From assembly GCA_964650355.1 (NCBI GenBank), contig CAZYTL010000001.1, forward strand, positions 85,552-149,551: DNA of 64,000 bases, given 5' to 3'. This DNA comes from an uncultured Gammaproteobacteria bacterium (lineage in GTDB: Bacteria > Patescibacteriota > Microgenomatia > CAYXHB01 > CAZYTL01). A model generated the notes under the pieces. The model was not told the origin of the DNA. It was given only the letters and a program-made list of their open reading frames with translations, and ran no database searches. Of this stretch, positions 20,988-61,856 are shown piece by piece (positions within the stretch are counted from its first letter, which is position 1; every line of letters starts with the position of its first letter). A program made the position numbers and the translations under genes.

Positions 20988-21014
20988 ATCCCTAGTTTAT
21001 CAAAAAACCTAACT

Positions 21015-21246
21015 CTTGACAGGAGTGAACAATTTGATACACTACTTGATAATTCTAATAAATAAAGGCTGTGAAGGAGTCGGTTGGGACTCCCGAGAAG
21101 CCGATCAGGCTATCCAACGAAGGAATGTCTGACCCGCAAGCCAAGCGTTATCAAACGGCAACAGTGTGTCGGCCATTACAGTTGGAGCACTGCACAATAA
21201 GGGTATCTTGTTTTGCAACTGTAACCGAGTCTGACTCGGTTTTTTT
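21015..21246 (+). ncRNA. Candidate small RNA or riboswitch-like leader: sigma70-like promoter to intrinsic terminator (~200 nt)
   Basis: TTGACA(21015)-N16-TACACT, then a structured region (ggagtc/gactcc, tccaac/gttgga, acagttg/caactgt), then ccgag-tctga-ctcgg + T7 at 21224-21246. Confidence 0.3.
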
Positions 21247-21394
21247 GTTTCCCAGAACAAGATACTGAACCAAGGTGGCACCGCCACTGATAGCTTTCAG
21301 CTTATAGCTGACAGCTTTTAGAAGGCCCTTGTAGATTTCCGAGATATTAACTCGGTGTTCTGCAAGGGCCTTTTTATTGACTCTTTAAACACTT

Positions 21395-22620: not shown

Positions 22621-23706
22621 TTAATTAATCGACAACAGGAACTGTTTAAGAATTAAATAGTAATCATGCAAACTTTTAACACTCACCCACTCTTCATCGG
22701 TATGCAGACCTGAACCAATCGGACCAAAGGTGACACCGTCACAACCCACCTGATTATAGAGACGAATATCAGAACCACCATGTTTAACAATCAGCTTTGA
22801 AGGCTTTCCAGTAATCTTCCTGGTGGCTTGTCTGAGCTTCTTCACATACTGGTTTTGTTCATCAGTAAATTGGCAAGGTTCATTAACCACCACCTCGATC
22901 TCGGCCAAACCTTTCAGTATCTGTTTAATTCTGTTAAGAATTTCTTCTTTGTCAGCAGGAATATAGCGCACATCCACACCCAAAATACAATCTTCTGGAA
23001 CCTTATTAAAGGTTTGGTTGGTAGTCTGCAGCATTGCCAAATTAGCTGTTGTTTTCCAAGCCTCTTCCGAGGGCACCGGAAAATGTTGGTTAAATTTTTC
23101 CATTACCAGACCCATTTGGTGAATCGCATTCTCACCATTCCACGGATAAGCTCCGTGTGCAGCCTTACCTTTAGTTTTAATTTTCAGCCAAATAATTCCC
23201 TTGGCCTGATTATTCACACCGAAGTCTGTAGGTTCTCCTGCAATCACGAAATCGGCCTTAATACCTTTTTCTATCTGATATTTAGTGCCATGAAAACCGC
23301 CCACTTCTTCATCCGTTACCAACTGCAAACCCAGGGGGTAATTGACTTTGTCCGCCAACTCTTTAAATAACAAAACCATCACCGCCGCAGCGCCTTTCAT
23401 ATCTTGAGCTCCTCTACCATACAACTTGCCGTCTCTCAATTTTGGGCTGAACATCTTTTCTGGGCCGGGCACTACATCCAAATGAGCATTCAAAATTACG
23501 CGAAACCGCTGAGGAAAACTAACTTTTTTGCAAACCAATAAACTTGGTATCCCCTGGCTTTCAAACCTTTTTACGGAAAATTCTTTTAACTCTGTTTCAC
23601 ACACCTTCAGAACTTCGTGCATGGCACTTAGGTTATCCGTAACCGAATTAATTCCAATCAGTCTTTCAGCTAATTGTCTAGTCATAGTACCTGATACATA
23701 TTCCAT
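22621..23706 (-). CDS. M20 family metallopeptidase/amidohydrolase (ArgE/DapE-like)
   Basis: HLDVVP..., GRGAQDMKG and metal-binding E/H pattern of M20. Confidence 0.8.
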   Translation of the reverse strand: MEYVSGTMTRQLAERLIGINSVTDNLSAMHEVLKVCETELKEFSVKRFESQGIPSLLVCKKVSFPQRFRVILNAHLDVVPGPEKMFSPKLRDGKLYGRGAQDMKGAAAVMVLLFKELADKVNYPLGLQLVTDEEVGGFHGTKYQIEKGIKADFVIAGEPTDFGVNNQAKGIIWLKIKTKGKAAHGAYPWNGENAIHQMGLVMEKFNQHFPVPSEEAWKTTANLAMLQTTNQTFNKVPEDCILGVDVRYIPADKEEILNRIKQILKGLAEIEVVVNEPCQFTDEQNQYVKKLRQATRKITGKPSKLIVKHGGSDIRLYNQVGCDGVTFGPIGSGLHTDEEWVSVKSLHDYYLILKQFLLSIN

Positions 23707-23712
23707 TCAAAG

Positions 23713-25083
23713 TCAACCAAAGTTCTCCATATATTTTTCAGTATATATCGAAATACGCTCACGATACTTTCTTAAATGTTCATTATCTTTAGATCCGAAA
23801 AAAGCCACCGTGTTTAAAAAAGTAAATATATCTATCAAAAAATTGTCTAAATTTTCATCCATCTTATTTAAATCTATATAAAATTTTCCGTTTTTAATCT
23901 CTAAAATTTCATACTGCTGTGCCTTTAATAGCCATAAACTTGTCGAATATAAATATTCTTCTCGGAGTCCCATATTTTTATATCTTTGATATTTATATTC
24001 AAATAACAACCAATCCAACACTAGTAAATCTCTAGTTGCACCTTTATCTAACATCGAATTTTGTTCTAATAAATAAGACAAATAGAGGGAATTTATTTCA
24101 GCCCGGCCTTCCTCTATTAAAGTATAATACTTACCGAGATTAAAACTCGCATTATTCGGTTTTAAATAAGTGTGTCCGTATTCATGTAAAATTAGACTCA
24201 GTAAATACAACTTCTCCACATTGTTTTCAATATTAGTTTTTAACTTTTTATCTAATTCAAACCGAGGCCGAGCCTTCTTGACAAAAGGTACTAACTTCGC
24301 CACTTTGCTCTTCAAATTGTTAACCATAATCATTTTTATTGTCCCGTATTTCTTCGCTAAATTGACATTTTCAGGTCTTGACCAACCTTCCGTATCTAAT
24401 TTCGCCACTTCTCCACCCTCAGATACTACGTCTCCTATAAACAAGTGAACAGCCTTATTTTCATCGCTAATGGGTAAAAATGAAAGATTATTCCTCGTAA
24501 CTTCTGACAATGAATTCCAAATCTTATTATAAAATTGATATTGTAAATTTTTATACAAAAACACAGCTGTGTAAAATCTCTTCGTTCCCAATATTTTATC
24601 ATGATAACGTTCGATCGGCCCGACACTCATTAAAAAAAATGCCGATTCATCAAAACGAAGAAATTCTTTATCAGCCTTCTCCCACTCGTCAGTTAAGAAC
24701 GCTTTTTCTAAACTAGAATAAAACCTTAACCACCTTTGCGCATTAAAACTTTCTTTTATGTTGTTAACTTCGTTTTTAATATCATTAATCAATATCACAA
24801 TTTTTTTCAAATCAAATTTGTAATAATCGTGGTAAGGAATCTCTTTAACCCTACCCGCTTTAACCATCATTACAGAATACGCATTGGTTTGATACCCAGG
24901 ATTTTGGCGTAGGAAGTCTTTAACTTCTCCTTGATAAACTCCTCCCTTTTTACTCAACTGTTTTATAAACAGTCGATCTATCTCTTTAACCAACTCGATA
25001 TTCAACTTCACAAAATCAATATAAACTTTAGGGATCTTCTTAACTATATCATCGTGTGTCCGGAGATATTTTTTCATAACCAA
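23713..25083 (-). CDS. Hypothetical protein with HExxH (LILHEYGHTY), putative zinc metallopeptidase; strongly AT-rich
   Basis: HEYGH motif. Composition differs from adjacent genes. Confidence 0.45.
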   Translation of the reverse strand: MVMKKYLRTHDDIVKKIPKVYIDFVKLNIELVKEIDRLFIKQLSKKGGVYQGEVKDFLRQNPGYQTNAYSVMMVKAGRVKEIPYHDYYKFDLKKIVILINDIKNEVNNIKESFNAQRWLRFYSSLEKAFLTDEWEKADKEFLRFDESAFFLMSVGPIERYHDKILGTKRFYTAVFLYKNLQYQFYNKIWNSLSEVTRNNLSFLPISDENKAVHLFIGDVVSEGGEVAKLDTEGWSRPENVNLAKKYGTIKMIMVNNLKSKVAKLVPFVKKARPRFELDKKLKTNIENNVEKLYLLSLILHEYGHTYLKPNNASFNLGKYYTLIEEGRAEINSLYLSYLLEQNSMLDKGATRDLLVLDWLLFEYKYQRYKNMGLREEYLYSTSLWLLKAQQYEILEIKNGKFYIDLNKMDENLDNFLIDIFTFLNTVAFFGSKDNEHLRKYRERISIYTEKYMENFG

Positions 25084-25091
25084 TTACAATT

Positions 25092-26579
25092 TTAAGTCAC
25101 AATAAAAGCACCAAAACCGGCATTCGCCATCACTAAGGTCTTGAACCACGCTTCTGCCTGAGTACAACTATCTGTCGATTCTATTTCTTTAGCCATCTCT
25201 TTTATTTGATCAATAATATACTCTTGATGAGACATAGTCATTCCGTTCTCAGGAGTATATGGCTTATGCGCTCCCACTCGGGTAAAACCAAATCCATCCA
25301 AGGCGGTCGTCCTTAACTCCAAAATTCCGCCCGGTGCTAAAGGTCCTTCCGTCATCCCATTAGGAACAATTCTTAAGATATCAACCACAGGTTGGATTAA
25401 ACGGTTATTTCTAGCCTTTAATTCGTCTAATCTGCCGAACTCAATCCCATACCCAGAATCCCCGCTTACAGGTTTGTCGATAAACATCATCGCATCCTTT
25501 CCCTCCAAATCAACTTCCCCTGGGGTACAAAAGCTGGGTATCAACATTGATACCGGACCGTATTTTTCATAAACAGGCGCAAAAGTTCCTTTAGTCAACA
25601 TCGCCATTGCAACTGGATGTTCTGTCCACATATCAGGTGAATTCAGTATCCTCTTGAACATTGCTCTCTCTTCTTCATCCATCGAACTCATCACATAGCC
25701 TATTTCTCTAGGGGTGGTATTATTCAAAAAACTTTGTCCTTCAGTACTATCTGTTCTTAATCGCCCAACGAGGTCACGAATATCTATCGGATGTCTGTCG
25801 CTTCTCCCCCAAACCTGGTTAGTAGTTACCTTGTCCGGTAAAGCATGATGTATCTCTCCGGGGCGCTCGTGTACCTTGTAATCAACAACCGAAAAATCAG
25901 ACCACCCGGCAAATATTCTAGACCTCACCTCCCAATCAAAGCGACCTAAATCTACTTGGCCTCCAAAAGCTCCATTAATTAAAAAATTACGTGTAAAACC
26001 GTAATAACCCTTGAATGAGCCCTGGCCTTCCATCCCCATGAACATAAATTGCAACTCTTTCTTCTCTACGCGCCGGTGAACCTCCTCCCAATGATTGTCT
26101 CTATCATCTATTCCCACTGCCACAGGTAATCCATTTCTAACTTCAATCGGCACCGACACAAAGTCTACTACCGGAGCTAAACCTTCCTGAAAAGATTTTT
26201 CCTTAACTGCTAAAACGGTTTCCTCACTAAACAGTTTTGGGTCTTCAACTCCATACTTCTGAAGACTTGCTGCGAAAGTTAGGTTTACTCTGGCCACGGT
26301 ATCCGCATCATTTTCGTGAGCAGCTTCCTCCACCAACAAGTCAGTCGCCCGCCTTAAATACTGATAAATATACCCAGGCACCTCTACCGGGAAACTAACC
26401 ATCCTAGTCCCTGTGAAGGTACCTTGCCAATCTCGATGAGATGTACCTTGTCCTAACCCTGCCCTGCTATTAGGCCAGCCCCGGTAAGTTTCACCCAAGC
26501 TGTCGACCATCAACTTATTAGCCTGTCTCAGTTCACCAGCATTTAATTTACGCTCAGGAATAAAGTTTATGTTTCCCAT
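25092..26579 (-). CDS. Hypothetical protein (495 aa)
   Basis: Long ORF, co-directional and tightly spaced with the ligase-like gene. Confidence 0.5.
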   Translation of the reverse strand: MGNINFIPERKLNAGELRQANKLMVDSLGETYRGWPNSRAGLGQGTSHRDWQGTFTGTRMVSFPVEVPGYIYQYLRRATDLLVEEAAHENDADTVARVNLTFAASLQKYGVEDPKLFSEETVLAVKEKSFQEGLAPVVDFVSVPIEVRNGLPVAVGIDDRDNHWEEVHRRVEKKELQFMFMGMEGQGSFKGYYGFTRNFLINGAFGGQVDLGRFDWEVRSRIFAGWSDFSVVDYKVHERPGEIHHALPDKVTTNQVWGRSDRHPIDIRDLVGRLRTDSTEGQSFLNNTTPREIGYVMSSMDEEERAMFKRILNSPDMWTEHPVAMAMLTKGTFAPVYEKYGPVSMLIPSFCTPGEVDLEGKDAMMFIDKPVSGDSGYGIEFGRLDELKARNNRLIQPVVDILRIVPNGMTEGPLAPGGILELRTTALDGFGFTRVGAHKPYTPENGMTMSHQEYIIDQIKEMAKEIESTDSCTQAEAWFKTLVMANAGFGAFIVT

Positions 26580-26618
26580 AGTCAGAGAATTAAAAAATTA
26601 GAAGTAATCATATCACAA

Positions 26619-28217
26619 TTATCGCCGTACACCCAATCTTAGTTTTAAATCATCCATAAAAACTCTTCCTGCCTCCTTATTTGTCTCTCGTATCTTTTCT
26701 TCACCCGATCCTGGAACCGTGTACGCGTAATTTAAAGCTGCCCGACCTAAATTTCCTTTCAAATAAGTACCATTTCTATTATCAAAAAACCCACCCAGCC
26801 CATACTCACCCGGTAAGTTAGCTGGAGTTAATAATCGAGAAACCACATCAACGGCTCGCTCCCAATCTGCTGATCTCTCATCAGGACTTGTCCATTCTAT
26901 TAGATGTTCCCAACCCTCAGCTACCGTAACTTCTCCTCGATTTAACTTTAATACAGCCTGATCACCATATGTGATAGCCTGCACCCGATTCTCCACCCTT
27001 TTATCCATGCTTAGTGGTTGCAAAAATGCCGGCAATGGCTCTTCATCGCTTATAACATGCTTAGCTACTCTTAAAACAAATTCTCTCTGAATCACCGCTA
27101 AGGCTAAAGCCAGTTCAAAGTGATTGCCGTCGCCAGGCCCGGTCTCAAACGTCCCTGTCCTATACTTTGTCCTCGTATCTTTATGAGAACCATTTGGTCG
27201 TGATTCCTGAATTGACAACCCCATTCTTCGTTTAGCTCTCAAAACTGCCTCATCCTTGTCATCGTTCCTTCCTCCTGCTCTTTCAGGTAAAGGAATCAAA
27301 TTCTCCCGCATTAAAAGATCTCCCCGTCTCAAATGGGCAATTGCATCTACGGGAATATTTGCCTGAACGCCTCCCCTGGTGTACATTTCCCATCTTGAAA
27401 GCTCTCTGTTTGATACCCTACCAGTCAGCTGACCTTTCCAAAACGGCGCTGCCGTGGCAATCGCATTTACCAAAGTAGCCGGCAGAGTATTATAAACGTT
27501 TCCTACATAAAGCCCAAACTCAGCACTACCTCCAAACGGCATTAAATCAGTATGACACTGGATACTCGCCGCATCAAAATCAAGAGATTGCCCATTTAGA
27601 TTATATTTCATAATCCGTGCAATTAACGGGTGAGGAGAAATATTTCCCCAACCATCAGGCAGACGAGTGCCCACCATACCCAAAGGAAGTAACAAAGCTC
27701 CTTCAACTTCACATGCATCAACTAAGGGGCCTAATCCCTTCAACAAACTATCTTCTAATTCATCCCAAGTCCTGCCCGGCGGTGTGGGAATCTCGACCAC
27801 ATAATTCTGGGCTTCCGGACTGCCTCCTGCTCTATCCAATAACCATTCTCTACCGCCTCTTGTTACAGTAATCTGATCATCTTCAAATTTCACGATCCTG
27901 TCGCCACCATAAACATTAAACGGTTCACCGGTATTTGCATCGACCACCGCCAACTCATACTCTATTCCCATTCCCACCTCTCTACTATCAGGTGGTAATC
28001 TTAAACTCTTTGTCATCTTCGCGGTATGCAGACGGATAGGCAAAAGATCCGATTCTCCCACATCAAACATGGTGTCCTCCTCGCCCTCTTGTCTCAATCT
28101 ATAGGGAACTGGTTTAACGCTTAGGCTTTTTCCCCACCATACCCCTCCCTTTCTCAAGCCATCTGGTACCTGTACTGGTCTGAAACCTTCTATTTGATTA
28201 AAACCTGCCATAACCAA
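26619..28217 (-). CDS. Carboxylate-amine ligase, glutamate-cysteine ligase family 2 (YbdK/GCS2-like) with C-terminal extension
   Basis: GMGIEYELAVVDANTGEP resembles the YbdK N-terminal GIELE.Q.V motif. NYVVEIPT resembles the E(L/I)xT motif. IQCHTDL may be the H.H motif. Confidence 0.5.
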   Translation of the reverse strand: MVMAGFNQIEGFRPVQVPDGLRKGGVWWGKSLSVKPVPYRLRQEGEEDTMFDVGESDLLPIRLHTAKMTKSLRLPPDSREVGMGIEYELAVVDANTGEPFNVYGGDRIVKFEDDQITVTRGGREWLLDRAGGSPEAQNYVVEIPTPPGRTWDELEDSLLKGLGPLVDACEVEGALLLPLGMVGTRLPDGWGNISPHPLIARIMKYNLNGQSLDFDAASIQCHTDLMPFGGSAEFGLYVGNVYNTLPATLVNAIATAAPFWKGQLTGRVSNRELSRWEMYTRGGVQANIPVDAIAHLRRGDLLMRENLIPLPERAGGRNDDKDEAVLRAKRRMGLSIQESRPNGSHKDTRTKYRTGTFETGPGDGNHFELALALAVIQREFVLRVAKHVISDEEPLPAFLQPLSMDKRVENRVQAITYGDQAVLKLNRGEVTVAEGWEHLIEWTSPDERSADWERAVDVVSRLLTPANLPGEYGLGGFFDNRNGTYLKGNLGRAALNYAYTVPGSGEEKIRETNKEAGRVFMDDLKLRLGVRR

Positions 28218-28218
28218 T

Positions 28219-28290
28219 AAAAAAACCTCCCTTTTTTAGGAGGTTGGGAAAAATAAAATGGGACGAACTTAAGTCATCTGTTGCCCTAAC
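28219..28290 (-). promoter_or_regulatory. 5' leader attenuator: AACCUCC/GGAGGUU hairpin + U-run 10 nt before ATG, with upstream GGGAGGUUAGGG copy
   Basis: Minus strand: ggctgaGGGAGGTTaggg ... ttCCCAACCTCCtaaaaaaGGGAGGTTttttttta-ATG. Confidence 0.55.
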
Positions 28291-28380
28291 CTCCCTCAGC
28301 CGTTAATAATAACGACTTCTCGGGAGATAGTAATGACGACAACAGAAAAATTCATATTAGCACTATTAGATTTGAAGTAT

Positions 28381-28443
28381 ATTTTAACCTTTTGTAGCTG
28401 GCTGTCAAGCAGCACTTGACAAAATTGAATCTATTGATAATAT
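28381..28443. promoter_or_regulatory. Back-to-back divergent sigma70-like promoters
   Basis: Plus strand: TTGACA(28416-21)-N16-TAATAT(28438-43). Minus strand: TTGACA(28408-03)-N16-TAAAAT(28386-81). Confidence 0.55.
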
Positions 28444-28513
28444 AAGCTCTAATGTATAGAGAATTATCTCTCCTTAGCCTTCTTAGCTTGCTCCTCCTTG
28501 AGGAGTAGCTAAA

Positions 28514-28582
28514 CGTGGGGAGAGACGTATTCTTTTTAATTCACTTTTATCAATTCACCTCTCCCCAGGAGAGGTTTTTTTA
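28514..28582 (+). promoter_or_regulatory. 5' leader attenuator: ACCUCUCC/GGAGAGGU hairpin + U7, upstream GGGGAGAG copy
   Basis: gtGGGGAGAGacg (28517-24) ... cACCTCTCCccaGGAGAGGTttttttt (28557-81), then ATG at 28608. Confidence 0.55.
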
Positions 28583-28607
28583 TTGCTAGAAAATACATTA
28601 CTCGCTT

Positions 28608-29870
28608 ATGGCATTTAATACAGATGAGACCAAGAATCATTTGTTTTCCGGCTGGTGGAACGATGTGAGCAGAAAATTTCCCCAACCCGTACATCAAGAT
28701 CAATCAGCTCGGGAAATACTAACTACTGCTCGTCAAGAGGCGCGACCGGTAGCTTTATTAATGGTTGGTTGTTTAAATTGGAGACAGGCTGAGTACGATC
28801 CAGAAAATAATTGGATAACTGCGTTGGATTCCCAAAACAAAAGACTTCAAGCCACCAGGGATCGGATTGCCAGTTTAGTATCTGGGTTACATTCCTTTGG
28901 AATTCCCACTCAACAATTTTTAAGCTTATCTCGCTTAGAAGCTGAGACTCTTACCTTAGGTACTCTGGGAAAGAGTGTCGTTAACACTCCCGAAGAGATC
29001 AGGGCGGTTCAAGAAAAGAGCATCGATACTGCTCATCAACTTTTCGCTGAACGGGGAGTAGCCGTCACTTTTATAGATGATACACAAGTGTTTATGCGTG
29101 AACATCATGCTGATAGCATCTCGACACTGCAAGAAAGGCTCATAGGTGATGGGGACGGTATAAGTGGCTTTTATACCGGTATGTATGAAAGTTTAGTAAG
29201 ACATCTTCCTCCAGAAGCACTTAGTAAGACCATGGAACAGACAGATCAGACTCCAGCAGGCATTATCTGGCTAGATCTAATGTCACCTCTTGCCGGACCT
29301 CATAGAGCCGAACTTTTGGACATGGGAACACGGTATAGACCAGAAATGCCAATTATTACTCCTTCCGCCAACTCGGGTAAGTGGTGGACACCTAGGACTA
29401 GAGAAGCAATGTTTCCCGACAAACTAGATTTTATTGGCCGCAGGCTAGGAATATCTACCTATCCGGGAGCTTCTATTGGGGAAGAAGATCTTATTAGAAT
29501 AATTCCTAAATTAGGAAGAACCAAACTAGCAAGATTTTTCGATGTTCCAAGGGATCAAATCAACAGAGGGGATGCTATCGACAGAATCTTTGAAATATCA
29601 GGGGTCAGAAACTCAGCTCAAGAAGCAACGCCTGATGACGCTCCGTACACCGCAGAACCTGGCGACAATATCCTTGGTGTTTACAAAGAAGTTACCGGAA
29701 AAAGTACCAATCATACGATTAAAGATCTCCGTAGGGGTATTTGGGCAGAAATACCTGTTGATGGAAATCCAGAGAGGAAACTAATTAAGGATGGTCGGAT
29801 CCCTGTTCAGCCGGGAATGAGACTAAATACCGGTAGAAACCAATGGACTTTGATTAACTTTCCAGAATAA
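28608..29870 (+). CDS. Hypothetical protein (420 aa)
   Basis: Long ORF, first gene of the plus-strand operon. Confidence 0.5.
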   Translation: MAFNTDETKNHLFSGWWNDVSRKFPQPVHQDQSAREILTTARQEARPVALLMVGCLNWRQAEYDPENNWITALDSQNKRLQATRDRIASLVSGLHSFGIPTQQFLSLSRLEAETLTLGTLGKSVVNTPEEIRAVQEKSIDTAHQLFAERGVAVTFIDDTQVFMREHHADSISTLQERLIGDGDGISGFYTGMYESLVRHLPPEALSKTMEQTDQTPAGIIWLDLMSPLAGPHRAELLDMGTRYRPEMPIITPSANSGKWWTPRTREAMFPDKLDFIGRRLGISTYPGASIGEEDLIRIIPKLGRTKLARFFDVPRDQINRGDAIDRIFEISGVRNSAQEATPDDAPYTAEPGDNILGVYKEVTGKSTNHTIKDLRRGIWAEIPVDGNPERKLIKDGRIPVQPGMRLNTGRNQWTLINFPE

Positions 29871-29872
29871 AT

Positions 29873-30907
29873 ATGAATACCAAATTAATTACTGACATTA
29901 GAGATCTGCTAATCAAGATGAAACTTGAGGCTGTGGTCATTTATTCGGGGAGCTCTGACGATCGTTTTATGAAAGCCATCGCTGGAACGCCGTCATTATT
30001 AGAAGATTACGTTTTAATTACACCTAAAAACGCTTTCATTTCTGAGCCAAGATATATAACGGCTTATACCAGACGCAAAACCACAATCCCTATTTTGGAT
30101 GCTCCAAGCGAAAGACAACTTATAGAACCCTTGATCGCCGTTATCGGAGGTCACAAAAATATTGGGATTGCAGGGAGTTGTAGATATCAAGATATTGTCA
30201 GCCTTAAACCGAATCAAGTGACAGATATCACTTCCCAAATCAACAAATTGTTAAGACATAAATCCGACTCTTATATTAAAAAACTAAAAAAGTTAGCCAA
30301 AAGTACTTCTCGAATAATGGAATCTCTCGCGATTAAAACAGGCGATCAACAATCAAAAATTGCTCAAAAGCTACACACCGCAGCTATTGAGTTAAATGGT
30401 GATTTAGCTTTTCCGATCTGTATCACCAGTGGCCGTGATCTGGAAACTAGTACCAGTACTCCTGCTAGTGCAAAAGTAATAAGAAAAAACGACGCTGTTT
30501 GTATTGATATGGGGATAAAGAGCGACATTTATGCCACCGACTGCACCAGAATGTATTTTATTAACCATCCGAACAAGAAAGCCCTCTATTTAGGAATCGT
30601 TAAAGCTCATAACGAAATTATAGATAATTTCATCAGACCTGAGAGGACTTTCAGAGAAATTATTGATGAGTATCACAGAAAATTTAAAAACCACCGCCAT
30701 ATTAAAGAAATTAGAGAGTTAGGTATTGGACATGGTATTGGCTATGGGCTTCATGAATATCCTGAAATTGCAGAAGTAGATAAAGAACCCGTGGGTACAA
30801 ATATTGTCTTCACCCTAGAGCCGACTTTTATCACTACCATGGGAAGATTTAGAGTTGAAGACATGATCAGCGTTGATTCTCAGGGGGTAGTTAGCAAGTT
30901 AACTTAA
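29873..30907 (+). CDS. M24-family (creatinase/prolidase 'pita-bread' fold) metallopeptidase-like protein
   Basis: D...D (CIDMGIKSDIYATD), H (GHGIGYGLHEYP) and E (FTLEP) in M24 order. Paralog of 31919..32944. Confidence 0.65.
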   Translation: MNTKLITDIRDLLIKMKLEAVVIYSGSSDDRFMKAIAGTPSLLEDYVLITPKNAFISEPRYITAYTRRKTTIPILDAPSERQLIEPLIAVIGGHKNIGIAGSCRYQDIVSLKPNQVTDITSQINKLLRHKSDSYIKKLKKLAKSTSRIMESLAIKTGDQQSKIAQKLHTAAIELNGDLAFPICITSGRDLETSTSTPASAKVIRKNDAVCIDMGIKSDIYATDCTRMYFINHPNKKALYLGIVKAHNEIIDNFIRPERTFREIIDEYHRKFKNHRHIKEIRELGIGHGIGYGLHEYPEIAEVDKEPVGTNIVFTLEPTFITTMGRFRVEDMISVDSQGVVSKLT

Positions 30908-30912
30908 AATAT

Positions 30913-31869
30913 ATGACAATTACAACATCCGAAACGCGGCGATTTCGAGGGCTTCAATGGGAGTTAGCGCCCCCTATAGGGGATAACGGTGCTGGCAAAG
31001 TGAACACTTTACCAGAGAGTACTATCGGCTATCTTGCTGACCAAATTGATGCCAGATTTACATTACCGGGAAGTGCAAAAGGGGGATTACAAAATTTAGA
31101 CAGATTACGTTTACTTGGTGACCGTTTACCTGTAACAGTCGTACTTTGCCCCTTGTACTTAAAAGCAGGTGGATTTGTAACTAGAGAGTCAGGTTTAACC
31201 ATCGAAGACAGCCGAATAGGAATAAAATGGCGGGAACAAGAAAAGATGTTAGATTTACTTGGCGCGGTAACTGAGAAGGAAGGTCTGAAATTAGATCCCA
31301 GATTTACTTTTGCCGATAGAGGAGTAATTGTTCCTGAAAGCCCAAATGGGAAGCTTGCCTCTATATTAGCCTATCATCAGGATCTTTATCAAAGTAGACT
31401 TGACGGCTTATTCCCAGAAGGTTATCAACTAGACACCTTTACCAGTTTAACAGACCAATACCCGACTATCGCGGGTGATTACCCCCGTTTTATAATTCCG
31501 GATGGAATACAAGACCAGAAGTACGTCCAAAGTCAAGAACCTACTACAATAGCTGCTCTTCAAGACTTAGTAGACAGAGGACTTGTTGAATCTAATGATG
31601 TATTCAGGGTTAATCCAGCAGGTGAGAAAGAATTACTAAAACGCGTTAGAAACCGCCTAAGAGGTTTAGTAAAGTTTGGTGGATATAATCTGGCATTAGA
31701 ATTTGTCCGTCAATATCACACTTTCAACAATGCCCTTGTAGCATCTAATCCCGAACATGGTTTGCATACCTACTTTGAACGCGTTGATTATCTTCTGACT
31801 TCGATGAATACTTTGGCTCGGAGATCTCCTGCTGCCACTAATCCCCGAGTAGAAGTCCTCTGTAAATAA
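30913..31869 (+). CDS. Hypothetical protein (318 aa)
   Basis: ORF between the two M24 paralogs. Confidence 0.5.
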   Translation: MTITTSETRRFRGLQWELAPPIGDNGAGKVNTLPESTIGYLADQIDARFTLPGSAKGGLQNLDRLRLLGDRLPVTVVLCPLYLKAGGFVTRESGLTIEDSRIGIKWREQEKMLDLLGAVTEKEGLKLDPRFTFADRGVIVPESPNGKLASILAYHQDLYQSRLDGLFPEGYQLDTFTSLTDQYPTIAGDYPRFIIPDGIQDQKYVQSQEPTTIAALQDLVDRGLVESNDVFRVNPAGEKELLKRVRNRLRGLVKFGGYNLALEFVRQYHTFNNALVASNPEHGLHTYFERVDYLLTSMNTLARRSPAATNPRVEVLCK

Positions 31870-31918
31870 GTTGAGCAATCCATAGAATTCAAAAGGGGCG
31901 ACTAGAAAATAGATTAAA

Positions 31919-32944
31919 TTAGGTTATTTTTATAACTTCTTTCTTTGAATTGACCGCAATCATATCTTCAATTCTCATTCTGCCGTACGGGGTAATAAAA
32001 GTAGGCTCTAAAGTAAAAACTATATTCTTACCGATTTTCGAACTACCTGACTCCACATTTGGTTTTTCATGAAGTGCGAACCCTATCCCGTGTCCTAAAT
32101 CAGATTCCATCACTTCTTCAATCTGATGATATTTTTTTGAAAAACGACGATATCTTTGAATAGTTTCATCAAATCTTGTATTGCTTGTAAGGCTGTCAAT
32201 TACTTTATTGTGGATCCGAATTATTTGTTGATATAAGCTTTCAGCTTTTGGTTGATTAACAAAAAACATTCTTGTGAAATCAGTTGTATAAATTGAATAT
32301 TTAACTCCCATATCGATACAAATCATGTCTTTAGCTCCAATAATTTTATTACTCGCCAAACAACTGGTAGAAATTTTTATATCCTGGCCGCTGGTGATAC
32401 AAACAGGAAAAGCTAACTGTAAATTTCTGTTTATAACTTTCACCTGCAACCTTTTACTCAATTCCAATTGATTTATAGAAGAAACTACCTGGATAGACGT
32501 TAAAATCTTATTCGTAACTCTTGCATACCGTTTCAAGTTGTTAATATAATCATCACTTTTATATCTCACTACATCACTAGCACTAAGGTTTAAATCTATT
32601 GTTGATTTAGGTTCCAAACTAACTATATCTGGATATTTACAATTACCCACGATACCAATCAATTTGTTTGTCCCGATTATAGATTTAATACCATTGATCA
32701 CTTCATTTTCACCCTCTACTGAGACAATATTTAAAGTTGTCCTTTTTTTTAAATCAGCTACTAAATAACTCGCTTCTGAGATGCTTATACTATTAGCAGT
32801 AACCACCAGATAATTTTGCAATACTGAATAAGTACCACTAAGTGCTTTCATATACCTGTCGTCATATGCGTTAGCATAAACAACGATCGCGTCTAGTGTA
32901 TATTTTTTAAGCAGCCTTTGAAATTTTTGAATGTAATAATTCAT
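31919..32944 (-). CDS. M24-family metallopeptidase-like protein (paralog)
   Basis: CIDMGVKYSIYTTD, LGHGIGFALHEKP and FTLEPTFIT align with 29873..30907. Confidence 0.65.
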   Translation of the reverse strand: MNYYIQKFQRLLKKYTLDAIVVYANAYDDRYMKALSGTYSVLQNYLVVTANSISISEASYLVADLKKRTTLNIVSVEGENEVINGIKSIIGTNKLIGIVGNCKYPDIVSLEPKSTIDLNLSASDVVRYKSDDYINNLKRYARVTNKILTSIQVVSSINQLELSKRLQVKVINRNLQLAFPVCITSGQDIKISTSCLASNKIIGAKDMICIDMGVKYSIYTTDFTRMFFVNQPKAESLYQQIIRIHNKVIDSLTSNTRFDETIQRYRRFSKKYHQIEEVMESDLGHGIGFALHEKPNVESGSSKIGKNIVFTLEPTFITPYGRMRIEDMIAVNSKKEVIKIT

Positions 32945-33999
32945 AAGCCGTATTCACTAGCTTCATCAGCTATGGTTTCTAAAGATTTACCTAAATAAGG
33001 CACCTTTACTGCCCCGTCACTCAACAGTACAAGATTGTGAAAAGGTCTTAATATTGATGTTCTAGGTCGGGAACCACCATCAGGATAATCTAAATTATAC
33101 GCATAAAATTCCTTATGCCCAGGATTTAAAGGTCCCGGTATAGTATCTAACATGACTACGTCTCCCTTGTGTGTCAACTTTGTTCCAAACAAAGTATTAC
33201 TAAAGTCTTGGAGGTGATCGCCTGTTGCTGCAACTAATCCAAAATTTTCATCGACCACTCTCTGTATAATTTCTTCCCTTGTCGTGTACCCTCCCCAGGC
33301 ATATTGAAGCCATGAACCATCTGCTTCTACAGTAGTCCTTAGTAATCCTGCCCAGCGATTATCACCCTCAGCCATTATTCCTCTCAGCTGAGAATTCCAC
33401 CAATCCCAGTGATGATAAAAGCCATCAACTTGTACTTTGCTTTCTGGATGTGCAACAATATCCGTTAATTTTACAACCTTAGTAGACATAGGGATATCTC
33501 CATTAAAAGAACGCTGGGATAACCCGTGAGATAGTAAATTTGTGATAGTTTCAACGTTACGGCAGGTAGTTAAACGAATATGTTCTTTTAATTCTTCTGC
33601 TGATCTACCTCTATGGTCAAGATTTAATGGACTAAATAATTGCTCACTCATACCGACATCAACTAAAACTATTCCGAGATTAAACGGGATACCTAAGAGA
33701 TTTAAATCTAATAATCGACTGGGTAGTTCTTCATGTAATAATACATAACCACGCCTTAAACCATATCCAGAACTGTCCCACACCATTTCATTGTGAACGG
33801 TAGGTCTACGTACTCCATCTATTTGATAAGTTTCATAATTAGCACAAATAGGAGAAACTAATGGAGCTGGAATTCCAGACTCTGCGGCCTGGGTTAGTAT
33901 ACGCACCGCTTGATCAGGATATTCAAATCTCTCTTTGGAAAGAGACTCCTTTTGCCATCTTTGAATAACAGCTTCAATTTCTAGTTGTTTATTTGACAT
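32941..33999 (-). CDS. Hypothetical protein (352 aa)
   Basis: ORF with a 4-nt overlap onto the downstream M24 paralog. Confidence 0.5.
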   Translation of the reverse strand: MSNKQLEIEAVIQRWQKESLSKERFEYPDQAVRILTQAAESGIPAPLVSPICANYETYQIDGVRRPTVHNEMVWDSSGYGLRRGYVLLHEELPSRLLDLNLLGIPFNLGIVLVDVGMSEQLFSPLNLDHRGRSAEELKEHIRLTTCRNVETITNLLSHGLSQRSFNGDIPMSTKVVKLTDIVAHPESKVQVDGFYHHWDWWNSQLRGIMAEGDNRWAGLLRTTVEADGSWLQYAWGGYTTREEIIQRVVDENFGLVAATGDHLQDFSNTLFGTKLTHKGDVVMLDTIPGPLNPGHKEFYAYNLDYPDGGSRPRTSILRPFHNLVLLSDGAVKVPYLGKSLETIADEASEYGL

Positions 34000-34015: not shown

Positions 34016-34096
34016 CTAAAAAAACCTCCTTTTAGGAGGTTTGTGATTTAATAATTGTGGTTTAGTTTTATTTATCTTCTGCCACAAACCTCCGCT
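34016..34096 (-). promoter_or_regulatory. 5' leader attenuator: CACAAACCUCC/GGAGGUUU hairpin + U-run, with upstream GGAGGUUUGUG copy
   Basis: Minus strand: gcGGAGGTTTGTGgc (34081-95) ... tCACAAACCTCCtaaaaGGAGGTTTttttttag (34046-16), then ATG at 33999. Confidence 0.55.
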
Positions 34097-59608: not shown

Positions 59609-60811
59609 TCACTCTCTGCTTTGCTCCTCAGAGGTTTGATACATTCCTGGGTTAGTGGCTGTGAAGATTGCCAAAAGGGGTAGCAATCCACCTACCATTA
59701 AAGCTATGCTGAGCGATTTGTCCGCCAGCATCCCCATAAGCGGATTTAGAATTATCAGTGGGACCTTGTGGGCCATCGCCACAAAAGAAAGCATCGTGGC
59801 TCTCTCGTTTTCGGGAATATGCACATTTACGTGTGTGGCGATCAACTCCCGTCTGGTCAATCCCACGCCACCGGCTAACACTAGAAAACACGCAATAGTT
59901 AACAGGCTGGGATATAAAGCCGTAATCCCAAAACCCACTGCTGTTACAATTGCCGATACCCGTAAATACCGGTGGGTGGAACGAAACAATTTCTCAGAGA
60001 ACGGGAACAGCAAAGCTACCAGTACTTCTATGACCACCAGACCACCGTGTATCCAACCATAGTACTCTATACCTACCCCCTGGGACTTTAATAACGGCTG
60101 ATATAACCAGATTACATAATAAGCTCCTGTAGCTACCAGAATTGAGTCGATCGCCATCCATTTGATAGCTCTATTTTTCCACACGTATCTACCCCCTTTC
60201 TTGGCTATCGTTAGCCATCTTTTACTCTCACTTATCTGGTTTCTTCTCGGCGGTTCTTTAATACTCCAACAGGTGACTGCTGCCAAGAAGAAAGGTATAG
60301 ACGACAGATACATCGGAGCATTGATGCTGATGTGAGAGGCTATTATCCCGCCTATCGGGGCAGAGATCGCCATCGCCGCAAATTTGACTGCATAAGCCCT
60401 TCCGAAGATTTTTGTTCTTTTAGCTTCTAGGTTTGCCGACCTTAAGGTGTCGTAAAGGAGGGCGTTATCTGCACCAGAGGTCAGAGCCAAACCCATGGCA
60501 AACAAAAATTCTCCTAGCAAAAACACCTCAAATTTGGGAAAGCTTCCGTAAACCACGGTAGCCATACTTACCACCAAGGCTCCTAATGCTACCGAATGTT
60601 TCCGGCCAAAGTAGTCAGCCACTACTCCAGTGGGAACCTCCAGTACAAAAGCCCAAAACATGAACCAGGACTGTAGAAAGTAAGCGTGAAACAATCCCAG
60701 TCCTGCCCAGTCTGTGAATAACGGCGTGAGCACAGCCGCAAACAAACTGGCATTTTTAAAAAACACATACAGGTAGTATTTAATTAAAGTGTTTCTGAAA
60801 GTGGTATTCAT
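59609..60811 (-). CDS. MFS transporter (12 TM)
   Basis: Hydrophobicity pattern and GRK/ADKS loop motifs. Good SD (aaggagacagatcATG). Confidence 0.8.
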   Translation of the reverse strand: MNTTFRNTLIKYYLYVFFKNASLFAAVLTPLFTDWAGLGLFHAYFLQSWFMFWAFVLEVPTGVVADYFGRKHSVALGALVVSMATVVYGSFPKFEVFLLGEFLFAMGLALTSGADNALLYDTLRSANLEAKRTKIFGRAYAVKFAAMAISAPIGGIIASHISINAPMYLSSIPFFLAAVTCWSIKEPPRRNQISESKRWLTIAKKGGRYVWKNRAIKWMAIDSILVATGAYYVIWLYQPLLKSQGVGIEYYGWIHGGLVVIEVLVALLFPFSEKLFRSTHRYLRVSAIVTAVGFGITALYPSLLTIACFLVLAGGVGLTRRELIATHVNVHIPENERATMLSFVAMAHKVPLIILNPLMGMLADKSLSIALMVGGLLPLLAIFTATNPGMYQTSEEQSRE

Positions 60812-61021
60812 GATCTGTCTCCTTTCTTTAATGTTTGTTAAAGTGCCCGGCTAATAACGGATATTCCCAGATCCGTAGATCACCCGATCCTGAGCGAATC
60901 AGAATTAGTGATTTGTTTAGCCGGGTAAACCTCCGAGAAAAGGATTATTAAAAATTATTAACATTGCTTATCTGTGATAAATTTCTCTAGTTTAATTAGT
61001 TAATTTTCATGCTTTGCCATT

Positions 61022-61160
61022 AAAAAAGCCTCCTTTTCGGAGGCTGTGTCGGGAAAACAAATGTGATTGAATTATTAACTTCCACCCACGACTACAACCT
61101 CCATGGCCGGGTTAGCATCGACAGAGTCGATAGCTCCAGCGAAAAGCATGGAGGTTTTGG
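61022..61160 (-). promoter_or_regulatory. Leader attenuator (4th copy): AGCCUCC/GGAGGCU hairpin + U-run, upstream GGAGGUUGU copy, 6-codon uORF
   Basis: Minus strand: ggccatGGAGGTTGTag (61119-05) ... gaCACAGCCTCCgaaaaGGAGGCTtttttaATGGCAAAGCATGAAAATTAA. Promoter TTGACT-N17-TAAAAT at 61288-61260. Confidence 0.5.
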
Positions 61161-61295
61161 GATATTGTTGCCAGCAACGTTGTCTTTCCATAAACTACTT
61201 TAAGAGTCGAAATAGTTATTTATACAGCAGAAGCTATGCTCCAATCCGTATATTGGTATATTTTATCCCATAAGTTAAATTAAGTCAAAAAACCG

Positions 61296-61856
61296 TTACC
61301 AATCTCCCTGTCCAATGTCCAACAATTCATTTGATTTCAGAATTCGGTTTAAAATTTGAGGCGTACAAATCGGAGCCATCATCACGTCCTTGGCTTTGGT
61401 AGTGTGCAGATTATTGTTAACGTCACGATATTGGTAGGCTTTATGAACGGCTGTGAACCCTACATGACCGTACAACTTCGCCCCTCGTTTTACATTTGTT
61501 TGCAATAAGCCAATATCGCATTTCTCCCTTCTCAAGATCTTCATCGCCTCCTTTAACAATCTGCCCGCCATCTTTCTACCTCTCTGGTTTTTTCTAGTAC
61601 ACACGTCTCCTATGCCCCCGATTATCATTTGCTGGTTATCAAAGACGGTGGGACGTTTAATTATTCTCAGGTAAGAAACTAACTCATTATCTGAGTAGAG
61701 TAACAAATGTCTAAAAGTAGGTGAGAAATACAAATTTTTTCGCTCTTGTTCAAACTTCTCGACATTAACCTCAAAACAATTCACGATCATCTCGTTGATC
61801 TCTTCTCTTAACTGATCAATAACCTGGGAATCTTTAAGAACTTTTATCTTTAGCAT
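61296..61856 (-). CDS. GNAT family N-acetyltransferase
   Basis: Motif A IGGIGDVCTRKNQRGRKMAGRLL (Q/R-x-x-G-x-G/A). Confidence 0.7.
   Translation of the reverse strand: MLKIKVLKDSQVIDQLREEINEMIVNCFEVNVEKFEQERKNLYFSPTFRHLLLYSDNELVSYLRIIKRPTVFDNQQMIIGGIGDVCTRKNQRGRKMAGRLLKEAMKILRREKCDIGLLQTNVKRGAKLYGHVGFTAVHKAYQYRDVNNNLHTTKAKDVMMAPICTPQILNRILKSNELLDIGQGDW

Follow-up and report, generated by a model that had tools for sequence, protein, structure and literature searches.

The stretch analyzed here, a window of 64,000 nucleotides (64 kb) from contig CAZYTL010000001.1 of a bacterium of the candidate phyla radiation (CPR, Patescibacteria), carries on its minus strand a gene for a major facilitator superfamily (MFS) transporter. 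The region between this gene and the GNAT gene upstream of it (60812–61295) contains, in the direction of transcription, 2 promoter-like sites, a 38-codon open reading frame (ORF), 4 segments with alternative pairings (designated R1 to R4), the last 2 of which form an intrinsic terminator, a second structured element, and the Shine–Dalgarno (SD) sequence of the MFS gene (Table 1). We read the region as a predicted ribosome-mediated (leader-peptide) transcription attenuator of the MFS gene, with a probability of roughly 0.7. The first promoter, the terminator hairpin with its U-run, the AUG that opens a 6-codon upstream ORF (uORF) 8 nt after GGAGG, the 9-bp stem with its sub-hairpins and the SD-like sequence ahead of it, and the MFS start codon had been described in an earlier sequence-only reading of the window and lie where it had placed them. 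The sequence GGAGGUUGU and the 10-bp inverted repeat AACCUCCAUG/CAUGGAGGUU, which it had also named, are present as well, at positions 3–17 nt away from those given (61119–61111 instead of 61102–61094, and 61159–61108 instead of 61156–61147 and 61105–61096). The 38-codon ORF had been overlooked.

Table 1. Features of the MFS leader (coordinates on the minus strand of the 64-kb window), ORFs of related leaders, and 3 further leaders in the window.
Feature	Position	Strand	Sequence or peptide	Remark
Sigma-70-type promoter	61288–61260	−	TTGACT-N17-TAAAAT	10 of 12 matches; directly after the GNAT stop codon (61296)
Second, weaker promoter-like site	61244–61239 and 61224–61217	−	TTGGAG and TATAAA/TAAATA	From the alignment with relatives
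Leader ORF	61191–61075	−	MERQRCWQQYPKTSMLFAGAIDSVDANPAMEVVVVGGS	38 codons + stop; also predicted by the gene caller
R1	61156–61147	−	AACCUCCAUG	5' arm of anti-antiterminator (P1); encodes K-T-S-M of the conserved motif
Inner hairpin inside P1	61140–61106	−	GCUGG-AGC-AUCGAC ucu GUCGAU-GCU-CCGGC	
R2	61105–61085	−	CAUGGAGGUUGUAGUCGUGGG	Partner is R1 (P1) or R3 (antiterminator)
Part of R2 pairing with R1	61105–61096	−	CAUGGAGGUU	10-bp inverted repeat with AACCUCCAUG
Segment within R2	61102–61094	−	GGAGGUUGU	
R3	61053–61039	−	CCCGACACAGCCUCC	3' strand of antiterminator and 5' arm of terminator
R4	61033–61027	−	GGAGGCU	3' arm of terminator
Intrinsic terminator (R3/R4)	61045–61027, U-run to 61022	−	AGCCUCC-gaaaa-GGAGGCU + U6	
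uORF	61020–61000	−	MAKHEN*	6 codons; AUG 8 nt after GGAGG
Pyrimidine tract, then SD-like sequence	60946–60927	−	CCUUUUCUC, then GGAGGUUU	5' flank of second element
SD-like sequence	60934–60927	−	GGAGGUUU	
Second conserved element	60937–60836	−		Extended hairpin
Closing stem of second element	60925–60917 / 60854–60846	−	CCCGGCUAA/UUAGCCGGG	9 bp
SD sequence of MFS gene	60825–60819	−	AAAGGAG	7 nt before ATG; conserved in relatives
MFS ATG	60811	−		
MFS transporter gene	60811–59609	−		400 aa; MFS_1 2.8e-22, MFS_3 1.2e-8
L004 leader ORF			MNRQQHWYCNFKPSMLIGWEYGYAVNTPKMEVAVVEIP	38 codons
L088 leader ORF			MERQDHQFDCFYITSFLWKVMAGVANTPNEMEVVLMDSI	39 codons
L013 leader ORF			MNNNRHNYQICGTSLPKLMGNKNVAKASLEAVVMII	36 codons
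L042 leader ORF			MQNISNRQINKFATTKPSMCGYVLHATHYIGDLSIA	36 codons
Leader A, Phe-rich	ORF 34150–34100, terminator 34041–34023, region 34262–34000	−	MQSNSFAFQTFFFFFN	
Leader B, Val/Ile-rich	ORF 28355–28296, terminator 28245–28224, region 28420–28218	−	MNFSVVVITISREVVIING	
Leader C, Leu-rich	ORF 28452–28508, terminator 28557–28575, region 28400–28607	+	MYRELSLLSLLSLLLLEE	

The transporter belongs to a family that is common in CPR bacteria, with homologues named Gottesman-, Shapiro-, and Roizmanbacteria and Paceibacterota; among GTDB representatives, its relatives were found only in Parcubacteria and Dojkabacteria, which places the window in a CPR genome. The source contig, 295 kb long, also occurs in Logan run SRR14802573. 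Comparison of the loci revealed that (i) the closest orthologue (74% identical; ENA contigs L004 to L007) follows a methyltransferase gene, not a GNAT gene, and its 457-nt intergenic region aligns with 60812–61295; (ii) the same leader layout precedes orthologues of 53% (L088), 45% (L013), and 31% (L042) identity; (iii) a hairpin with a U-run lies upstream of 12 of the 21 homologues that are at least 44% identical, versus 1 clear case among the 32 below that level; and (iv) the upstream neighbor varies, being a GNAT, methyltransferase, NUDIX, or lipase gene or a divergently transcribed ABC gene. Because the leader stays with the MFS gene while the upstream neighbor changes, it belongs to the MFS gene. 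No attenuator was found at the MFS orthologues P0006, P0025, and P0028, and a scan of genome contigs returned only 2 distant MFS relatives, neither with a leader. An nhmmer search with the leader against 87 related loci gave no sequence-level match beyond L004 to L007, the more distant leaders being found only by eye or by motif. Except for the uORF, everything in the leader is conserved in relatives, and the region is supported as a genuine cis-regulatory leader of the MFS gene. The uORF, which the sequence-only reading had listed, is lost through a 28-nt deletion in L004 and absent from L088; we reject it as the relevant ORF, and to judge from this comparison it is probably fortuitous.

The leader RNA can adopt 2 competing folds. 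The segment 61255–61015 folds at −70.8 kcal/mol (z = −3.4 versus shuffles) and the 3' part, 61020–60805, at −48.4 kcal/mol (z = −3.1). Within the former, the R1:R2 pairing amounts to −18.2 kcal/mol, and R2:R3 forms a 15-bp antiterminator of −23.8 kcal/mol, versus −11.4 ± 2.5 kcal/mol for shuffled upstream sequence; in relatives, R2:R3 is worth −17 to −21 kcal/mol, versus −8 to −11 kcal/mol for shuffles. A transcript cut before R4 takes the antiterminator fold, and the full transcript folds into P1 plus the terminator; L004, L088, and L013 show the same switch, and the terminator is conserved in all 3. The mutually exclusive 1:2, 2:3, and 3:4 pairings by which attenuators are recognized are thus present in the MFS leader, as is an intrinsic terminator upstream of the regulated gene. 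That the upstream GGAGG copy is complementary to the 5' arm of the terminator had been noted in the sequence-only reading, and both folding and comparison support this pairing as an antiterminator. Two small hairpins are predicted in addition in the extra 5' segment of the window leader (61252–61192).

Both conformations are preserved in evolution. In an alignment of 4 sequences, the share of paired cells is 73% for either conformation (83% for the antiterminator cells), versus 29–53% when the partners are slid. The sequence of the inner hairpin is not conserved; compensatory changes (AUCGAC/GUCGAU versus ACGGC/GCCGU versus GGCC/GGCC) maintain its pairing. In a second group of leaders, here termed the sister or GCUGG type (L090, L100, L101, L104, L010, L012, and L021), which lie upstream of orthologous MFS genes, all 4 segments are swapped from CCUCC/GGAGG to CCAGCC/GGCUGG (R1 to R4 being CCAGCC, GCUGGUUU, AAACCAGCC, and GGCUGGUUU) and the architecture is unchanged; their R2:R3 pairing reaches −17 to −19 kcal/mol, versus −6 to −9 kcal/mol for shuffles. 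The strongest covariation is that between these 2 leader types, across 4 regions.

A short conserved open frame, as expected of an attenuator, lies between promoter and structural gene and overlaps region 1, R1 corresponding to codons 12–15; from there it runs on through the inner hairpin and R2. It spans 36–39 codons in all 5 leaders of the window's own type (D type, the MFS leader being leader D of the window) and 20–32 codons in the sister type. In the window, L004, and L088, the stop codon stands exactly 8 codons past the GAG of R2, though the codons between have diverged. The other 2 frames accumulate 15 and 19 stops over 10 leaders, and the chance of the leader frame staying open in shuffles is 0.08–0.35 per leader. 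In all 10 relatives for which upstream sequence is available, the ATG follows the −10 hexamer by 6–10 nt, several having a TTGAC(A/G) −35 box at 17 nt; therefore, the leader mRNA of these relatives would be leaderless. The promoter of the window leader differs: TTGACT-N17-TAAAAT has no conserved counterpart in L004, where the promoter falls further downstream in the alignment, and the weaker promoter-like site of the window (61244–61217) is the positional homologue of the TTGACG-N17-TAAAAT of relatives. Compared with L004 and L088, the window leader has an insertion of ~24 nt between the ancestral −10 position and the ATG of the leader ORF.

Over R1, the peptides of both leader types share the motif [KRQ]-[PT]-[SA]-[MN]-L-[VIF], in the forms KTSMLF, KPSMLI, ITSFLW, KPSMC, YPAMLV, KPANLV, QPANLV, MPLNLV, and RPMTLV; outside such short motifs the peptide is poorly conserved. 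The Pro/Thr of the motif is residue 11–14 in 10 of 11 leaders, and the distance from its codon to the start of R2 is constant within each type (49–52 nt in the D type and 31–32 nt in the sister type). The stretches encoding NRQ and KPSM in L004 and L042 differ at 5 nucleotides, all of them synonymous third positions. The L-V codons of sister leaders make up the 5' arm of inner hairpins that vary in their 3' arms, which argues that the 5' arm is constrained beyond pairing. An R-Q-R (+X+) macrolide-arrest motif was also considered and set aside, being present only in the window peptide and so not conserved.

The following mechanism would account for these features. Transcription would start at the promoter or promoters at 61288–61217, and the 38-codon ORF would be translated as the RNA polymerase moves on. 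If the ORF carried no ribosome, or if a ribosome ran unhindered to the stop codon, R1 would pair with R2 or R2 would be covered; in either case, R3 and R4 would form the terminator, and transcription would stop at ~61022. If, however, a ribosome stalled on R1 or on the inner hairpin (approximately codons 11–25, which include K-[PT]-S-M-L), it would mask R1 and leave R2 free. Free R2 would then pair with R3 in the 15-bp antiterminator, no terminator would form, and the polymerase would read into the MFS gene. The sequences themselves show the elements, their exclusive pairings with their conservation and covariation, and the conserved ORF with its geometry; translation of the ORF, stalling as the switch, and the cause of the stall are what we infer here. 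Since the peptide motif is conserved and a codon run is not, sequence-dependent stalling by the nascent peptide is the favored trigger; our best guess at what sets it off is a translation inhibitor, a small molecule, or, more generally, slowed elongation, and we consider it less likely that a particular amino acid is sensed.

Several points weigh against an attenuator of this kind. (i) The comparison set consists of only 5 D-type and 7 sister leaders, related by descent, and in one of them, L042, both R1:R2 and R2:R3 are weak (−7.0 and −9.0 kcal/mol). (ii) The leader ORF of the window has neither an SD sequence nor, owing to the ~24-nt insertion, the leaderless arrangement of its relatives; its translation is therefore less certain. 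(iii) The CC-rich pairing of R1 demands Pro and Ser codons, which would explain part of the peptide conservation and makes the evidence from the motif suggestive. (iv) No amino acid is enriched or conserved in codons 1–25, where a stall would free R2, and the VVVV run (61098–61087), which only the window has, falls on R2, so that stalling there would favor termination. (v) The terminator is separated from the ATG by 210 nt and a second conserved structure, which is unusual for a simple attenuator.

This second structure, the downstream multi-stem element of the sequence-only reading, is real and conserved. L004 and L088 have it too, and compensatory changes are seen in its closing stem (CCCGGCUAA/UUAGCCGGG versus UCCGGUUCA/UGAAUCGGG in L088 versus an extra U-A pair in L004) and in 2 inner stems (ACGGAU/AUCCGU versus GCGGAU/AUCCGC, and AUCAC/GUGAU versus UCAUC/GAUGA); it is recognizable, if diverged, in L013 and absent from GCUGG-type sister leaders. 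Two inner hairpins are found in the window and L004 and one in L088, so no junction is conserved, which argues against a ligand pocket. The 5' flank, (U)CGGAGGUU, is conserved in L004 and L088 (CCGGAAGUUUA in L013), and the 3' flank, GGGCACUUUAACA, is conserved likewise; the 2 flanks are the conserved single-stranded parts and can pair weakly with each other, and in minimum free energy (MFE) folds AGGU of the 5' flank pairs with ACUU of the 3' flank. Because sister leaders do without it, the element is not needed for attenuation; as speculation, it could be a stabilizer, a standby site, or an element governing access to the SD sequence by way of the pyrimidine tract. In the 2 most distant D-type leaders, L013 (2372–2486) and L042 (~2350–2465), a CCUCC/UUCCC tract right after the terminator U-run pairs with the SD sequence of the MFS gene in the MFE fold, which suggests an additional translational layer. 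In the window, the pyrimidine tract at 60946–60938 is only partly complementary to the SD region.

Among the alternatives, classical amino-acid attenuation fares best, and even this we consider unlikely. Here the VVVV run would sense charged tRNA for valine or branched-chain amino acids, and the MFS gene would belong to a starvation regulon together with the gene island at 22621–33999. Four different Val codons do stand in a row, the last 8 codons are rich in V, I, L, and M in all D-type peptides, the 3 island leaders are amino-acid-specific attenuators, and a starvation-induced importer would be biologically sensible. We reject this reading on conservation and geometry: the run reads VAVV, VVLM, or AVVM in relatives and is missing from sister leaders, the first 2 of its Val codons follow from the R2 sequence GGAGGUUGU, and a ribosome stalled on it covers R2, favoring termination over read-through. 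The sensitivity of attenuation requires several regulatory codons before R2 (PMC1183508); such a cluster is found in leaders A, B, and C and is missing from the MFS leader.

A riboswitch, which the sequence-only reading had favored, appears quite improbable. In such a device, the hairpin enclosed by P1 or the downstream multi-stem element would bind a small molecule and thereby set termination or access to the SD sequence. The three-part layout of anti-antiterminator, antiterminator, and terminator would fit it, as would the structured and covarying second element, and transporters are common riboswitch targets. However, the MFS leader has no ligand-binding core that is conserved across homologues. 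The P1 interiors of the window, L004, L088, and L013 bear no sequence relation to one another; sister leaders differ even in their helix sequences; the second element, with its varying number of inner hairpins and its absence from sister leaders, offers no conserved junction or pocket; and what is conserved is the ORF, beside the helices. Scans with Rfam returned no credible family match either at the gathering score, where only 3 tRNAs were found in the whole window, or at E ≤ 10, where 60700–61400 gave only weak alignments to the terminator hairpin; the best of these, AaHKsRNA82, reached 28.3 bits against a threshold of 51.4, and Phe_leader (RF01859) 19.9 bits against 55. A T-box reading of the GGGUGG after R2 was likewise discarded, there being no RF00230 match at E ≤ 10 and no conservation of GGGUGG in L004 or L088.

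Still less probable is that the ~230-nt promoter–terminator unit is chiefly an independent small RNA (sRNA) or 38-residue small-protein gene acting in trans. A promoter of its own and a strong terminator speak for this reading, as do the annotation of the ORF by the gene caller and the precedent of attenuator-derived sRNAs and leader peptides that act in trans (rnTrpL/peTrpL; PMC7298713); against it stand the strict linkage to MFS orthologues across lineages, the scant conservation of the peptide beyond its short motifs, and the R2:R3 complementarity, which makes sense only for cis control. The least probable reading makes the hairpin merely the terminator of the GNAT gene, with a separate MFS promoter downstream, and, although no other terminator follows the GNAT gene and the hairpin probably also ends GNAT read-through transcripts at 61022, it is opposed by the promoter between the GNAT stop codon and the leader, by a leader and terminator that track the MFS gene beside unrelated or divergent neighbors, by a terminator–ATG gap that is 10–40 nt in GCUGG-type leaders and ~150 nt in L088 with no conserved promoter, and by the finding of no promoter-like site on the minus strand of 61020–60812, where the sequence-only reading had said that one would speak for this possibility.

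The window carries 3 further leaders (Table 1), in each of which a GGAGG-type antiterminator arm lies at the end of the ORF or immediately after it and a CCUCC/GGAGG terminator follows. The amino-acid enrichment observed in leaders A, B, and C was reached by 35, 2, and 0 of 20000 shuffles, respectively, and Rfam gave nothing credible on these leaders. To judge from the sequences, this genome clearly uses ribosome-mediated attenuation. The genes behind leaders A to C are not biosynthetic: the operons there encode M24/M20 peptidases and unannotated proteins. The Phe leader recurs before orthologues of the 352-residue protein that it precedes, as MKSANTFFFACFFSLAKGRYGSGA in a Chisholmbacteria genome and as MSLNQAFTFFFFNLQKREALT in Portnoybacteria-like contigs; in both, the antiterminator arm is GGGAGG, and some of the ORFs continue through R2 like that of the MFS leader. 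The MFS leader is not, as had been supposed, a fourth copy of a leader shared with the island: blastn against the window matched only its 23-nt terminator hairpin, at 91% identity, to 34017–34039 (E = 0.024). The co-regulation with the island that was deduced from such a copy is not supported, since the island leaders are Phe-, Val/Ile-, and Leu-rich, which implies different signals even among themselves, and the MFS leader has no conserved codon run.

A simple scan of the 64-kb window found only 7 strong intrinsic terminators: those of attenuators A to C and of the MFS leader, one in a fifth leader, one after the MFS gene (59605–59578), and one inside a gene. As most of them lie in leaders, strong hairpins with a U-run appear to be mainly regulatory elements in this genome. 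The fifth leader (20988–21394, plus strand) lies upstream of a DUF3182 gene, between 2 divergently oriented genes. Its parts are a promoter, TTGACA-N17-TACACT, ~180 nt of structured RNA with AACCGAGUcugACUCGGUU and U7 at its end (21223–21241), then GGUGGCACCGCC (~21274–21285), which resembles a T-box motif, and a second terminator-like hairpin (21322–21378); no Rfam match was obtained for this leader at E ≤ 1.

Some of the genes behind these leaders are of interest in themselves. The 352-residue protein behind the Phe leader (33999–32941, minus strand) belongs to a family confined to CPR bacteria and has no Pfam, NCBIfam, or PDB-sequence match. Its AlphaFold2 model is confident, with a pLDDT (predicted local distance difference test score) of 90.9. 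Compared with the PDB by Foldseek, it best matches cyclodipeptide synthases (CDPSs) and catalytic domains of tyrosyl-tRNA synthetase, with probabilities of up to 1.0 at E-values of only 2e-3 and TM-scores (template modeling) of 0.3–0.55; these matches are weak and assign no family. The model suggests a core like that of class-Ic aminoacyl-tRNA synthetases (aaRSs) or CDPSs, and the protein might handle Phe or Phe-tRNA. The first gene behind the Leu leader (28608–29870, plus strand) encodes a 420-residue protein for which 5.8 billion protein clusters yielded no homologue at E ≤ 1e-10 and neither Pfam nor NCBIfam gave a match; it is thus an orphan under apparent leucine control. The MFS protein itself has weak matches, far below cut-offs, to DHA3/Tet efflux models (DHA3, TetA(P), and Tet(40)) and scores 48.7 bits against a cut-off of 319.6 with TIGR00900; a PDB search with it yielded no informative relative. 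In L090/L091 (1501–4026), a DUF498 gene and a gene like those of class-A beta-lactamases lie, in the same orientation, behind an MFS orthologue that has a GCUGG-type attenuator; this is a hint, and no more, of a resistance-type context.

CPR bacteria are uncultivated, have tiny genomes and few recognizable regulators, and their gene control is largely unknown. The predicted MFS attenuator and the 3 amino-acid-specific attenuators in the same 64 kb point to ribosome-coupled RNA switches in use in such a cell. Each leader peptide offers a handle on the signal of its operon; for example, the Phe-rich leader marks a protein family confined to CPR bacteria as phenylalanine-related. A conserved motif without a codon run points to a mode of sensing that can be tested in vitro, and for annotation it follows that such leaders should be filed neither as riboswitch candidates nor as orphan small genes. 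A wider and distinctly tentative view would be that leader-peptide attenuation, mostly on leaderless mRNAs, is a principal regulatory device of the regulator-poor CPR bacteria, in which the MFS leader would encode a new arrest-type peptide (motif at residues ~11–16) that senses a small molecule, a drug, or general elongation stress within the ribosome and switches on a CPR-widespread transporter, and in which Phe-, Leu-, and Val/Ile-specific attenuators would switch on peptidase and aaRS/CDPS-like operons. If this were true, the codons of a leader would hint directly at what the CPR genes behind it do, where these otherwise resist annotation. Full-text literature searches combining CPR or Patescibacteria with attenuation found no paper, and leader-peptide attenuation does not seem to have been described in these bacteria before.

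With the attenuators of Escherichia coli trp, pheA, leu, and ilvGMEDA/ilvBN and of Corynebacterium glutamicum ilvBNC, the MFS leader shares a promoter-proximal short ORF that overlaps region 1, exclusive 1:2, 2:3, and 3:4 pairings, and a terminator before the gene; a leaderless leader ORF also has a precedent, in C. glutamicum ilvBNC (PMC11857589). Leaders A, B, and C, with their Phe, Val/Ile, and Leu runs, closely fit these classical amino-acid attenuators. The MFS leader, by contrast, has no run of codons for a single amino acid, and its 38-codon ORF is longer and reads through region 2. The regulated gene encodes a transporter and is not part of a biosynthetic operon, the terminator is followed by a 210-nt structured untranslated region, and the host is a CPR bacterium without the corresponding pathways.

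A second comparison is with antibiotic-inducible attenuators. In mef(E)/mel (PMC4335068), vmlR (PMC9226507), and msrD (PMC10314930), a drug-stalled ribosome on a short leader ORF remodels the RNA so that no terminator forms. The likeness lies in the regulated gene, which can be an MFS efflux pump (Mef), and in the peptide, whose sequence matters in place of a codon run; the differences are that the MFS leader has no known arrest motif that is conserved, that the MFS protein of the window is not assignable to a drug-efflux family, and that the phylum is another. Further antibiotic-inducible leader-peptide attenuators are ermC, cat, and bmrCD. TnaC (tnaCAB) and SpeFL (speF-potE) are metabolite-sensing arrest peptides of 24–34 residues whose stalling controls downstream genes, including a transporter; their stalling occurs at the stop codon or close to it, and the termination involved is Rho-dependent. 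The MFS leader differs from these 2 in its intrinsic terminator, its presumed stall in mid-ORF, and a peptide without sequence similarity to theirs. Transcriptional riboswitches have the same logic of P1, antiterminator, and terminator and the same kind of target; unlike them, the MFS leader has no conserved aptamer core or Rfam match, and a conserved ORF, predicted to be translated, spans what would be the aptamer. The MFS leader would be a new family within a well-known mechanism.

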